Notes: generated by a model from the sequence alone, not told the origin. A stretch of DNA of 39,625 nucleotides from Escherichia phage nasanit (PV245933.1); one strand, 5' to 3'; positions 517 through 18,127 are shown, counted from the stretch's first letter. Made by a program: numbers and translations.

Positions 517-560
517 AATAACTCAAGGCCACTACATCTAGTGGTCTTTATGATATTTCA
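517..560 (+). promoter_or_regulatory. Conserved processing hairpin (RNase III site-like, R18.5 position)
   Basis: AACTCAAGGCC...TAGTGGTCTTTATGATATT; member of an 8-copy hairpin family; stem pairs with G-U wobbles at RNA level. Confidence 0.45.
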
Positions 561-611
561 ACACAACTCACGGTGACGCTACGTGAAATCTGAAAATACG
601 GGAGGGTAGTT

Positions 612-1055
612 ATGCTCAAGAATTTAAAGAGCTACGCCATAATCGCTGCGTTTGCCTTGGGTATTACCCTTGCGTATAACCACGGATATGACAAAGCTAA
701 CACTAAATGGGAACAGGAGGTGCACAATGAGTACGTTAAGAAAGTTGAGGCGACTGCGGATAAACAGGCTGCTCTCAATGAAGTCTCACGACAATACCAA
801 GAAGACCTTGCGGCGCTGGAAGGCAGCACTGATAGGGTCATTAATGATTTGCGTAACGATGGTAAGCGGCTGCGTGTCAAACTATCAGCCACCTCACGAG
901 AACTCCAAGCTAACGGTGGATGCCTCGTTGATGGTCGAGCCGAACTTGACGAAGAGTTTAGTAAGCGTCTTATCGGAGTAACTCAAAGAGGGGATGCGTG
1001 GATTAAAGCGCTCCAAAATACAATAACTGAAATACAATCTAAGAAGGAGAAATAA
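612..1055 (+). CDS. 18.5: i-spanin (Rz-like), gp18.5
   Basis: 147-aa ORF, N-terminal TM helix then coiled-coil periplasmic domain; motif WEQEVHNEYVKKVEA typical of T7 gp18.5. Confidence 0.85.
   Translation: MLKNLKSYAIIAAFALGITLAYNHGYDKANTKWEQEVHNEYVKKVEATADKQAALNEVSRQYQEDLAALEGSTDRVINDLRNDGKRLRVKLSATSRELQANGGCLVDGRAELDEEFSKRLIGVTQRGDAWIKALQNTITEIQSKKEK
727..981 (+). CDS. 18.7: o-spanin (Rz1-like lipoprotein), gp18.7, embedded in +1 frame of 18.5
   Basis: 84 aa starting MSTLRKL inside ORF 652-981; lipobox-like VSGC followed by Pro-rich segment; embedded arrangement as in T7. Confidence 0.75.
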   Translation: MSTLRKLRRLRINRLLSMKSHDNTKKTLRRWKAALIGSLMICVTMVSGCVSNYQPPHENSKLTVDASLMVEPNLTKSLVSVLSE

Positions 1056-1056
1056 T

Positions 1057-1614
1057 ATGGCTGCTACAAACTCAAGAACCCGCACACTCTGGACCATCAA
1101 TGGTCGCTCACCAGACAGTCGTGATGTGTATGACCACAACAATATTGGTATTCGCGTTGGGCGTATCGACATCCCAGCTTCGGAGATGGTCAAGGTAGAT
1201 GGCTACTCTAAGGTTGAATACGTTGTTCAACTTAGCGATGGCACCACTGAGCAACATGCTACGTTCGAGACCCTTATGTCCACTTGGGGTGGCTCCGTCG
1301 AGTCTAAGCCGGGAAGCGGGTTCATGACGGTGTTCCTGAATGAGCAAAGCACTGAGCGACTCGGTATGGTTCGAATCGACGTATACAAAGAGTGGACTGG
1401 TGCTGACCCTGAACCTGAAGGTGGCATGGCTTCCTTAGTTAGCGCAACGCTTTCTGCGTCTGATAGTGAATTTGGTACACAGTTCGTGGATAGCGAAGGG
1501 AAGAGCGCTTCCGTTATGTTCCAACCTAGTAACATCGACGGGGCTGTATCTAAGACCGACACTATCAAGGCTCTTGAGAAGCGCATTGATGCCTTAGAGA
1601 AATCTGCCAAGTAA
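1057..1614 (+). CDS. Hypothetical protein, 185 aa, no family recognised
   Basis: Intact ORF; ATG 1 nt after 18.5 stop with AAGGAGA SD; ends 15 nt before gene 19; codon usage like neighbours; no TM segment; amphipathic C-terminus KALEKRIDALEKSAK. Confidence 0.6.
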   Translation: MAATNSRTRTLWTINGRSPDSRDVYDHNNIGIRVGRIDIPASEMVKVDGYSKVEYVVQLSDGTTEQHATFETLMSTWGGSVESKPGSGFMTVFLNEQSTERLGMVRIDVYKEWTGADPEPEGGMASLVSATLSASDSEFGTQFVDSEGKSASVMFQPSNIDGAVSKTDTIKALEKRIDALEKSAK

Positions 1615-1629
1615 CAATAGGAGGCCACA

Positions 1630-3387
1630 ATGTCTACTCAAGCAAACAAGAATGCGCTCATCGTGGCGCAACTTAAGGGTGACTTCGTGGCCTTCCTGTT
1701 CGTCTTATGGAAGGCTCTGAACTTACCTAAACCAACCAAGTGTCAGATTGATATGGCACGTACACTCGCTAATGGCGACCACAAGAAGTTTATCCTACAG
1801 GCGTTCCGTGGTATCGGCAAGTCCTTTATCACCTGTGCGTTCGTCGTGTGGGTCTTATGGCGTGACCCTCAACTTAAGGTGCTCATCGTGTCTGCCTCTA
1901 AGGAACGTGCTGATGCTAACTCCATCTTCATCAAGAACATCATCGACCTCCTTCCGTTCCTCTCTGAGTTGAAACCTCGACCGGGACAGCGAGACTCCGT
2001 GATTAGCTTCGACGTTGGCTTGGCGAAACCAGACCACTCACCCTCTGTGAAGTCTGTAGGCATTACTGGTCAGTTGACTGGTAGCCGTGCTGACATTATC
2101 ATCGCAGATGACGTTGAGGTTCCCGGCAACAGTTCTACAAGCTCTGCTCGTGAGAAGCTGTGGACACTGGTAACTGAGTTTGCTGCGTTACTTAAGCCGT
2201 TACCTACCTCTCGTGTTATCTACCTTGGGACACCTCAAACCGAGATGACTCTCTATAAGGAACTTGAGGATAACAAAGGGTACAGCACGGTAATCTGGCC
2301 AGCACAGTATCCACGTAATGATGCTGAGGCTCTCTACTATGGGGACCGCTTGGCTCCGATGCTTAAGGCTGAATACGATGAGGGCTATGAGTTACTTCGT
2401 GGTCAACCTACTGACCCTGTTCGATTCGATATGGATGACCTCCGTGAACGTGAACTCGAATATGGCAAAGCTGGCTACACTCTTCAGTTCATGCTTAACC
2501 CGAACCTTAGTGATGCCGAGAAGTACCCGCTACGGCTCCGTGACGCTATCGTGTGCGCTGTGGACCCCGAACGTGCCCCATTGTCTTACCAGTGGTTGCC
2601 GAACCGTCAGAACCGCAATGAGGAACTCCCTAACGTTGGTCTTAAGGGTGATGACATCCATGCGTTCCATACGTGCTCTTCTCGTACCGCTGAGTATCAG
2701 TCTAAGATTCTGGTCATTGACCCAAGTGGTCGTGGTAAGGATGAGACCGGGTACGCAGTCCTCTACTCACTTAACGGTTATATCTACTTGATGGAAGTCG
2801 GTGGGTTCCGTGGTGGTTACGATGATGCTACCCTAGAGAAGCTCGCTAAGAAGGCCAAGCAGTGGAAGGTACAGACAGTCGTCCATGAGTCCAACTTCGG
2901 TGACGGTATGTTCGGTAAGATTTTCTCTCCGATTCTCCTGAAGCACCATAAGTGTGCCTTAGAGGAAATCCGTGCTAAGGGCATGAAGGAGATGCGAATC
3001 TGCGATACTATCGAACCGTTGATGGGTGCGCACAAGCTGGTAATTCGTGATGAGGTTATTCGTGAGGACTACCAGACTGCTCGTGACCTTGATGGGAAAC
3101 ATGATGTTCGCTATAGTGCGTTCTATCAGATGACCCGTATGACCCGTGAGCGAGGCGCTGTGGCACACGATGACCGACTTGATGCTATCGCATTGGGTAT
3201 CGAATGGCTACGCGAGGGGATGCTTGTAGACAGCCGTGTAGGTGAAGAAGAGATGACCCTTGAGTTCCTTGAACACCACATGGAGAAACAGACCATTGGT
3301 GGCGACCAGATTCATAGCTATGATGTAGGAGGTGTGGACATCTACTATGAGGACGATGGGGACTCTAGCAGCTTCATTGAGTGGTAA
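1630..3387 (+). CDS. 19: Terminase large subunit (DNA maturation protein B), gp19
   Basis: 585 aa; Walker A-like AFRGIGKSF; strong overall similarity to T7 gp19 (T7 is 586 aa). Confidence 0.95.
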
Positions 3388-3476
3388 TATAGATAAGTAT
3401 GCGGGAAAGGTGCATAGGTAAGCACTTAGTACCGCTACGTTACCGTTAAGTAACTTACTGATATACATGAAGAAAT

Positions 3477-3499
3477 TAATACGACTCACTATTGGGAAG
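3477..3499 (+). promoter_or_regulatory. Phage RNAP promoter (phiOR position)
   Basis: TAATACGACTCACTATTGGGAAG; matches T7 promoter core except T at -1. Confidence 0.8.
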
Positions 3500-3655
3500 G
3501 GCACCCTAAGACAACTTAAAGACACTTAAAGACTGCATATGCAAAGTGCATACTTAGTGACTACTCTTAGAGACCCTTACAGTGTGGGATGATAGTAATT
3601 GTAATTACATCCCTACTATCAGTGTAACCATCAAGTATAACAAGGAGGACGCTCT

Positions 3656-17162: not shown

Positions 17163-17304
17163 TGACAATGATTGGTTACTGACAACTCAATGTAACTGCC
17201 CTTGGGATGCACCTTGTGTGTGTCCTGAGCGTGTACAGCATGGAGACTTACTGACTCCTGAACAGGCGTACATATACGGTCATTGGGAGCCAAAGAATAA
17301 ATAA
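17146..17304 (+). CDS. Possible small Cys-rich ORF overlapping end of gene 4
   Basis: [36 protein letters not shown]...; start codon uncertain (alternatives 17106/17115); weak SD. Confidence 0.25.
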
Positions 17305-17306
17305 AT

Positions 17307-17329
17307 CAATACAACTCACTAATGGGACA
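17307..17329 (+). promoter_or_regulatory. Phage RNAP promoter (phi4.3 position), variant
   Basis: CAATACAACTCACTAATGGGACA. Confidence 0.65.
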
Positions 17330-17372
17330 GACACTCTGTTCCCATTTATCAATCCGCTTAAGGAGAATCACA

Positions 17373-17585
17373 ATGTTTAAATTCATCAATACTCTTGGTA
17401 AGCTGTTAGTTAAAATGTACTTCCGTGAAGCTAAACGTCTGAACGACAAGGCACGTAAGGACGCTGAACAGGCTCAACGCTTGGCGAAGCAGGCACGTCT
17501 ACTGTCTGAAGATGCAAGTGCTGGCGTTACGTCTGCTGCTAAGATTGCAGCGAAAGCAACCGACCTCAACAAGTTCTTCCTGTAA
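17373..17585 (+). CDS. 4.3: gp4.3-like protein (70 aa)
   Basis: Start MFKFINTLGKLL after AAGGAGA SD; same length as T7 gp4.3. Confidence 0.65.
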   Translation: MFKFINTLGKLLVKMYFREAKRLNDKARKDAEQAQRLAKQARLLSEDASAGVTSAAKIAAKATDLNKFFL

Positions 17586-17764
17586 TGGTTACGATAACCC
17601 TTGTGCTCACTCTGATAACTGTGAGCGGACAAACAATAAGTCAAGTCCCTATCACGGCACCGAAGGCTGAGGCATACGAAATATGCGAACAGCAAGGGCG
17701 CTCATGGTCTAAGGACTTGATGAAGAACGGCAGGGTTTTCACTGCCAACTACAACTGTATCTAA
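17585..17764 (+). CDS. Hypothetical small protein, 59 aa, N-terminal hydrophobic segment
   Basis: MVTITLVLTLITVSG... (signal peptide or TM-like), 3 Cys; ATG overlaps 4.3 stop. Confidence 0.45.
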   Translation: MVTITLVLTLITVSGQTISQVPITAPKAEAYEICEQQGRSWSKDLMKNGRVFTANYNCI

Positions 17765-17778
17765 TAGGAGTACACAAC

Positions 17779-18081
17779 ATGGCTATTAAATTCCCCGGTA
17801 ACACTATCCGTCTGTCCGACACCATCGACCAGTATGCTCGTCGGGTGCACATCAACGTCCGTAATGGCAAGGTCACTTTGGTCTACCGCTGGAAGGACCA
17901 TAAGTCCACCAAGGCGCACACACAGCGTGTGACTCTGGATGACACACAGGCAGGTCGTCTGCTGGCTTCCGTTGCTGTAGCCGCTACTGTGGCTGTAGGT
18001 GAAGACAATGTGCGTCAGGTTCTGCTGGGTAAGACCGTGGAGTCTGAGGGCAACATGCTTGCTGACAAGTGTGAAGAGTAA
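17779..18081 (+). CDS. Hypothetical protein, 100 aa
   Basis: Intact ORF with TAGGAG SD. Confidence 0.6.
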   Translation: MAIKFPGNTIRLSDTIDQYARRVHINVRNGKVTLVYRWKDHKSTKAHTQRVTLDDTQAGRLLASVAVAATVAVGEDNVRQVLLGKTVESEGNMLADKCEE

Positions 18082-18082
18082 G

Positions 18083-18127
18083 AGTTAAACTAAAGGTCAT
18101 CTTAACGGGTGGCCTTCGTGATTAACT
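18083..18127 (+). promoter_or_regulatory. Conserved processing hairpin (RNase III site-like, R4.7 position)
   Basis: GAGTTAAACTAAAGGTCATCTTAACGGGTGGCCTTCGTGATTAAC. Confidence 0.45.

Follow-up and report, generated by a model that had tools for sequence, protein, structure and literature searches.

The stretch of DNA analyzed here, referred to below as the window, comprises the 39,625 nucleotides (nt) of Escherichia phage nasanit (PV245933.1), and our subject is a family of hairpins that recurs between its genes. Judging from the gene order compared with that of the annotated BA14 record and from matches to PHROGs, the window is a complete T7-type genome, circularly permuted, of the genus Berlinvirus. 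A megablast search with positions 4500-12000 gave the T7-like phages PZJ0206, Carena, 285P and BA14, at about 93-95% identity, and the PHROGs matches of the open reading frames (ORFs) that flank the hairpins agreed with the gene order of BA14. A preliminary description of the sequence had reported eight copies of the element, always intergenic and on the + strand. Both direct reading and a covariance model confirmed these eight copies at their places. All of them lie on the + strand between called genes and start 0-45 nt past the upstream stop codon, and the distance from the predicted cut to the next start codon is 31-60 nt.

The R18.5-type hairpin (514-562; 56.8 bits with the covariance model; cut predicted after 551) separates gene 18, the small terminase gene, from gene 18.5, which encodes an Rz-like spanin. 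It folds at -16.9 kcal/mol with 18 pairs, and its upper stem, GGCCACUAC/UAGUGGUC, is common to T7 R18.5, with the distinctive GGCC/GGUC upper stem. The R0.3-type hairpin (5004-5053; 66.1 bits; cut predicted after 5042) is situated in the early leader, 3' of the host-type promoters, and its predicted cut is 37 nt from the ATG of gene 0.3. Directly after the stop codon of gene 0.3 there is an extra R0.5-like hairpin (5539-5589; 68 bits; cut predicted after 5578), and the R0.5 orthologue (5858-5908; 69.7 bits; cut predicted after 5897) precedes a 0.6-like ORF. The R1-type hairpin (7278-7327; 58 bits; cut predicted after 7316), which separates the kinase gene 0.7 from the RNA polymerase gene 1, is a variant with a smaller internal loop and a fold of -19.0 kcal/mol. 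Two hairpins begin just downstream of phage promoters. The R1.1-type hairpin (10662-10709; 60.5 bits; cut predicted after 10698) begins 12 nt past the phi1.1 start (+1 near 10650) and ends before gene 1.1, and the R1.3-type hairpin (11178-11225; 62.1 bits; cut predicted after 11214) begins 4 nt past the phi1.3 start (+1 near 11174) and ends before the ligase gene 1.3. The R4.7-type hairpin (18082-18130; 61.6 bits; cut predicted after 18119) stands directly after the stop codon of gene 4.5, 5' of phi4.7 and gene 4.7.

The 5' box of the element, AAACTCAAGGTC, was found with 0-1 mismatch at 5009, 5544, 5863, 10667, 11183 and 18087, with two mismatches at 519 and with three at 7283. Because of 1-nt indels and sequence variants, pattern matching within three mismatches recovered the 3' box at only four of the eight sites, whereas direct reading identified it at all eight. 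In the motif search, each of the two boxes was far commoner than in all dinucleotide-preserving shuffles. The covariance model (model R1) was built from the alignment of the eight copies and their common structure, and the window was searched with filters off. The search returned exactly eight strong matches, of 56.8-69.7 bits and all on the + strand. The next best match in the window reached 14.7 bits and belonged to the minus strand at one of these eight sites.

All eight copies share one shape, which consists of a lower stem of 6-9 base pairs (bp), an asymmetric internal loop, an upper stem of 9-11 bp and a loop of 3-5 nt. Their folds contain 16-19 pairs each and range from -13.9 to -20.8 kcal/mol. 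The helix is quasi-continuous over about 20 bp; its lower stem is variable and its internal loop is conserved (A-C-U-C on the 5' strand and U-A-U-G-A on the 3' strand). The upper stem opens with four nearly invariant pairs, AAGG/CCUU, and the stem base AAGGUC/GGCCUU is present as in T7 R1.1 in seven of the eight copies. It had been suggested that the stems depend on G-U pairs and are visible only as RNA. This does not hold, as G-U pairs account for only 2-5 of the 16-19 pairs in a hairpin and the inverted repeat is visible in the DNA. What the G-U pairs confer is strand asymmetry, not stem dependence. The folds of the minus strand are worse by 0.6-9.6 kcal/mol, with the two strands almost equal for the copy at 5004.

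Covariation was surveyed at two depths. Among the eight paralogues, 92.9% of the alignment cells were in standard pairs (76.1% in shuffles), and compensatory changes on both sides were observed in 12 of the 20 pairs, compared with 4.8 in shuffles. A wider alignment was drawn from T7-like contigs of IMG/VR, fetched with a loose pattern, together with T7, T3, BA14 and K1F. In this set the covariance model gave 105 matches, which represented 81 distinct sequences from 45 sources. In the 81 sequences, 93.7% of the cells were paired and 15 of the 18 pairs had compensatory changes, whereas in slid-register controls only 27-51% of the cells were paired. The covariation score was 0.509, whereas shuffles scored 0.198 and registers that were slid by 1-3 columns scored 0.04-0.14, with the caveat that the alignment of the 81 sequences was itself fitted to the model. 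The covariation was located in the variable lower stem and in the apical part of the upper stem, both of which are unconstrained by the fetch pattern. In the upper stem, the fifth pair was kept as U-G in 69 of the 81 sequences. The 3' strand of the internal loop, which is also outside the fetch pattern, was conserved as U/C followed by A (71/81), U (79/81), G (80/81) and A (74/81). That this strand is unpaired but conserved suggests a role there that is specific to the sequence. Conservation also surrounds the predicted scissile bond, with ACUCAAGG on the 5' side and CCUU(U)AUGAU on the 3' side.

The RNase III processing signal of the T7 group has been known since the 1970s and 1980s, and T7 R1.1 is the standard model substrate for RNase III of E. 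coli. Dunn and Studier reportedly described, in 1983, a set of T7 RNase III sites that includes R0.3, R0.5, R1, R1.1, R1.3, R4.7, R6.5 and R18.5. The feature tables of the T7 records NC_001604 and V01146 contain no RNase III features. Therefore, we used the T3 record AJ318471, which annotates such sites. For T7, we took the cleavage coordinates reported by Dunn and Studier to be 890, 1468, 3138, 5887, 6448, 11203, 13892, 18563, 27281 and 36856. At the canonical sites, the T7 sequences cut at these presumed coordinates aligned base for base with the copies in the window. The presumed cut fell at the same structural position, CCUU(U)AU^GAU, in seven canonical sites when counted by hand. The covariance model found R0.5, R4.7, R1.1, R18.5, R0.3, R6.5, R1 and R1.3 in T7, that is, eight of the ten presumed sites, and nothing else at an expectation value (E) below 1. 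The T3 record has ten stem_loop features named 'RNase III recognition site', and the model recovered eight of them at their annotated coordinates. Across T7 and T3, the sole extra match with E<1 was one of 18.9 bits in T3 (E about 0.1).

The individual copies could also be paired with their counterparts. Over 50 nt, the R0.3-type hairpin matches T3 825-874 at 100% identity, and this T3 segment is inside the T3 stem_loop annotated as 'RNase III recognition site R0.3' (822-875). The loop CCUAGCG and both arms of the hairpin at 5858-5908 are the same as in T7 R0.5 (1430-1479) and in the single copy of Carena. The R1-type hairpin is identical in BA14 (2916-2965), Carena and PZJ0206. The R1.1-type hairpin aligns with R1.1 of T7, T3 and BA14, and the R1.3-type hairpin has an orthologue in BA14 (L001 6819-6866). 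The R4.7-type hairpin corresponds to a BA14 orthologue (L007 5570-5616) and to the T3 R4.7 site (12972-13018). Orthologous hairpins of near-identical sequence are present at the same positions in the Berlinvirus relatives BA14, Carena, PZJ0206 and 285P. We considered concerted evolution of the paralogues and rejected it, as the nearest relative of most copies is the orthologue at the corresponding position in another phage.

Synteny gave the same picture. According to PHROGs and the annotation of BA14 and T3, the hairpins occupy the junctions 18/18.5, upstream of 0.3, after 0.3, 0.7/1, 1.05/1.1, 1.2/1.3 and 4.5/4.7, as in T7 and T3. The earlier assignment of the copies to R18.5, R0.3, R0.5, R1, R1.1, R1.3 and R4.7 was thus right by junctions, by alignment and by the model matches in T7 and T3. 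The T7 sites have the same architecture, boxes (ACUCAAGG and CCUUUAUGAU), gene junctions and strand as those of nasanit. Compared with T7, the sequences of the variable stem and of the loop differ in nasanit, two R0.5-like copies flank an extra ORF of 66 amino acids, and cleavage is predicted by homology. T3 has a single R0.5, and its R1 and R18.5 are more diverged (20 and 37 bits). Gene 0.3 of nasanit encodes a SAM hydrolase, like that of T3, whereas the T7 gene encodes Ocr. The R0.3 hairpin that nasanit shares in full with T3, a phage of another genus, precedes the SAM hydrolase gene 0.3 in both, which suggests that the gene 0.3 module and its leader were exchanged between lineages.

What was observed here is the hairpin family itself, with its fold, covariation and synteny, together with its identity to annotated T3 sites and known T7 sites, and we consider it highly probable that the hairpins are classic T7-group signals for processing by RNase III. 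The processing-signal reading of the preliminary description thereby gains support from the identity with T7 and T3 sites, the synteny and the covariation, with cleavage predicted by homology. The nasanit hairpins are real but textbook T7-group biology, which was already known.

The eight copies are genuine, but the family as described earlier had overlooked a ninth member and a probable R3.8 analogue. The ninth member is an R6.5-type site (22191-22273, + strand; cut predicted after 22262), which is laid out as GUGUAACUCUAGGCA, then the phi6.5 promoter (22229-22251) in a long apical part, then UGCCUAUAUGAUACCUAC. It keeps the lower stem, the internal loop and the AGG/CCU stem base of the family, and its minimum-free-energy fold is -37.9 kcal/mol. 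It aligns with T7 R6.5 and with T3 R6.5 (stem_loop 17135-17206, with phi6.5 inside), both of which are family elements with the phi6.5 promoter inserted apically; nasanit and T7 are alike in this respect. The R6.5 consensus fold of seven phages had 18 pairs, of which five showed compensatory changes. Because of the long insert and the diverged boxes, the covariance model did not detect the R6.5 analogue in the window even at E<=10. It was matched by a two-box regular expression, for which 0.23 matches were expected by chance per shuffle. The second match of this expression (21622-21706) was inside coding sequence and was taken as chance, given that expectation. Read-through RNAs contain the whole R6.5 site, and RNAs started at phi6.5 (+1 near 22246) contain only its 3' half, an arrangement that T7 and T3 share.

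Where the phi3.8 transcript starts (15292-15327, + strand), a hairpin, GGGAGAGCCGAAAGGUUUCUCCC followed by CUUUGUUCGC, is homologous in sequence to T7 R3.8 and to the region annotated in T3 as 'RNase III recognition site R3.8' (10616-10642). Its consensus fold was weak, with five pairs and no covariation. Judged on its sequence, it is probably an atypical R3.8 analogue outside the 45-nt family. A candidate for R13 (about 30265-30318) is a stem that encloses a promoter in a single-sequence fold, and it gave no consensus structure with BA14, T3 and T7. Both the R3.8 and the R13 candidates overlap phage promoters. The corrected inventory is nine clear sites and one probable site.

RNase III is a dimer that recognizes about two turns of double-stranded RNA. 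Its substrates typically comprise two helical turns, internal loops confine cleavage to a single bond, and the upstream RNA is guarded against 3'-5' exonucleases by the 3' hairpin that this leaves (PMC1540722). In T7, sites of the R1.1 type are cut at a single bond (PMC4858673). Of the ten RNase III sites of T7, six are in an intergenic region shared with a promoter (PMC9135205, PMC6938266), and the T7 sites shape transcript abundance (PMC6938266). If nasanit behaves like T7, its genome would be transcribed from left to right into long polycistronic RNAs, with host RNA polymerase starting at early promoters near 4600-4890 and then the phage RNA polymerase at about 15 phage promoters. Host RNase III would, by homology, bind this helix, and owing to the internal loop its cut would be limited to a single phosphodiester of the 3' side (CCUUUAU^GAU). 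The upstream mRNA would keep the whole hairpin at its 3' end, which would shield it from 3'-5' exonucleases. The downstream mRNA would receive a defined monophosphate 5' end, 31-60 nt ahead of the start codon. Such processing would yield discrete, stable messages from the polycistronic transcripts and shape their relative abundance. The T7 gp0.7 kinase (T7PK) phosphorylates RNase III and raises its turnover (PMC4858673). Its homologue in nasanit, the serine/threonine kinase encoded by gene 0.7 (6177-7274, + strand), matched phrog_2828 at 1.8e-178 and phrog_15752 ('positively regulates RNaseIII'), and it probably has the same effect. Cleavage, the exact cut position and the effects on the messages are all inferred by homology.

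Several points weigh against the processing-signal interpretation. The presumed activity of the nasanit sites rests on homology. T7 grows without RNase III (PMC6938266), so the sites are non-essential and their role in fitness is quantitative. Searches of Rfam 15 gave no match at the gathering threshold across the whole window and none at E<=1 over 4950-7400. It appears that Rfam is without a model for T7-group RNase III sites, and without such a family there is no curated model to confirm the hairpins. The cuts were placed with T7 coordinates that were themselves presumed. In addition, the pattern used to fetch the IMG/VR contigs, CTCAAGGTC...TGGCCTT, builds in part of the conservation of the large alignment; at least one site in each locus has part of its stem base fixed by the pattern.

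The region after gene 0.3 differs among close relatives. An ORF of 66 amino acids (ORF66; 5612-5812, + strand), which matched phrog_6500 at 1e-44 (function unknown), is bracketed by the hairpins that begin at 5539 and 5858. The first hairpin (5539-5589) and ORF66 together form a 319-bp unit (5539-5857). This unit is present in PZJ0206, in the same double arrangement, and in a T7-like contig (L021), and it is absent from Carena. Carena has one hairpin after gene 0.3 and BA14 has none. In L021 (3031-3399), a hairpin with a loop of the 5539 type precedes the ORF66 homologue, upstream of an R0.5-type hairpin. As the loop of the 5858 copy is shared with T7 R0.5 and with Carena, and given the order in L021, the 5858 copy is the R0.5 orthologue and the 5539 copy is the added one. 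The preliminary description, which regarded the copy near 5860 as the extra duplicate, had the two reversed.

The homology with L021 begins at the outer edge of the first hairpin and ends at the outer edge of the second. It is conceivable, though we regard it as rather unlikely, that a hairpin with its small ORF is an exchangeable cassette and that recombination between the hairpins of about 50 nt adds, deletes and shuffles early anti-host genes located between 0.3 and 0.7, within and across T7-like genera. If this were true, each gained gene would arrive with its own processing and stabilizing signal, and 5539-5857 would be one such event. In L021, the hairpin-ORF unit sits in a different neighborhood, and in another contig (L078, 1585-2283) there are three such hairpins at intervals of about 300-350 bp. 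A sigma-70-like promoter match (5908-5935; TTGAAA, a 16-nt spacer and TATCAT; 10/12) is located at the 3' edge of the R0.5 hairpin, before the 0.6-like ORF. Its position recalls what we take to be the minor E. coli promoter B of T7, which adjoins R0.5. Overall, the scan for sigma-70-like promoters showed no enrichment over shuffles.

The repeats might be mainly DNA-level linkers for recombination, which swap or duplicate early-gene cassettes, with RNA processing being secondary. The 319-bp unit missing from Carena would fit, as the ends of this indel fall inside the repeated hairpin. So would the homology with L021, which starts at the 5' edge of the first hairpin and breaks at the 3' edge of the second, and the many database matches that start at position 5538 of the window. 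However, a DNA linker needs no compensatory changes, no G-U pairs, no fixed strand and no conserved unpaired loop. In a wider but cruder count of 286 blastn alignment ends, 8.7% were at hairpins compared with 5.5% expected, which is a weak excess; among the intergenic ends, 22 of 58 were at hairpins compared with 54% expected, so there is no hairpin-specific excess. These counts imply that breakpoints are intergenic in general and not specific to hairpins. As there was no excess within intergenic DNA, we rejected the hairpins as preferred recombination breakpoints, and we consider a mainly DNA-level role very improbable. Another possibility is that the hairpins act without being cleaved, as exonuclease barriers, as uncut binding sites of RNase III or as regulators of translation of the gene downstream. 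There are indeed bulge-helix-bulge variants of R1.1 that RNase III can bind but does not cut (PMC1540722), and the hairpins are 31-60 nt upstream of start codons. Against this, their loop and stem-base sequences are the same as those of T7 R1.1, R0.5 and R4.7 and of T3 R0.3, T7 R1.1 is proven to be cleaved, and in the predicted folds no copy pairs with the downstream ribosome-binding site. There is thus only a slim chance that the hairpins work in this way.

We give still less credence to the hairpins as terminators or attenuators of transcription, by which the early and middle operons would be partitioned; this idea is scarcely tenable. They are stable, intergenic and on the transcribed strand, as terminators would be, and the upper stem of the R18.5 copy (525-548) passes a loose terminator-like scan. 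However, the other seven hairpins were not flagged, and the scan as a whole gave 14 sites compared with 13.6 in shuffles. At the base, the stems are rich in A/U, and what comes after them is UAUGAUUA, with no run of U. There is also no promoter between the hairpin at 7278 and the RNA polymerase gene, so that read-through is required. The true early terminator, TE, is elsewhere and consists of a G+C-rich hairpin and a T run (12487-12509). This element, a G+C-rich hairpin followed by TTTTTGTG, stands after the ligase gene and corresponds to the TE of the BA14 and T3 annotations.

The hairpins also affect the calling of ORFs. It had been proposed that an ATG embedded in the element creates spurious ORF starts. 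The hairpins do hold false starts, but these are mostly GTG codons in the 3' arm. In the ORF track, 5567..5812 and 5886..6071 start at a GTG within GAGUGGCC, and both of these codons (GTG 5567 and GTG 5886) are in GAGTGGCC, the 3' arm of the hairpin. The true starts are likely to be ATG 5612 and ATG 5934. The ATG in CATGATT/TATGAT opens only ORFs of 4-14 codons, except in the copy at 10662, where it is in frame inside an ORF of 46 amino acids (10685..10825) that starts at an ATG in the hairpin loop. Rfam does not cover the hairpin sites, and no RNase III sites are listed in those portions of the BA14, Carena and PZJ0206 records that we examined. As the sites are unannotated, the ORF track shows false N-terminal extensions (GTG 5567, GTG 5886 and ATG 10685). 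Once the nine or ten sites are marked, the mature phage mRNAs and their predicted 5' and 3' ends are defined, and the hairpins explain the strong conservation of the small intergenic gaps. The sites are also ready-made RNase III substrates or insulators for engineering. The understanding of RNase III or of T7 biology is unchanged, and the value of the result is mainly in annotation.

The remaining landmarks of the genome are arranged as follows. The late genes 18-19.5 come first in the window (1 to about 4000), with genes 18, 18.5 and 19 at 244-3387. The promoters phiOR and phiOL are at 3477 and 4367, and between them the left end of the genome is expected, near 4015, from the offset to the phiOL of BA14. 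The host-type early promoters (about 4608-4886) precede gene 0.3, the SAM hydrolase gene (5080-5538). Gene 1, which encodes the RNA polymerase, is at 7348-9999, the ligase gene (1.3) is at 11265-12296, and DNA polymerase is encoded at 18589-20703. We placed about fifteen phage promoters in the window. Several of them are followed by a short 5' hairpin (10007-10050, 13510-13550 and 24835-24875), in which GGGAGA is combined with UUUCCC or UCCC. These promoter-leader hairpins resemble the leader stem of T7 phi10 and are distinct from the RNase III family.

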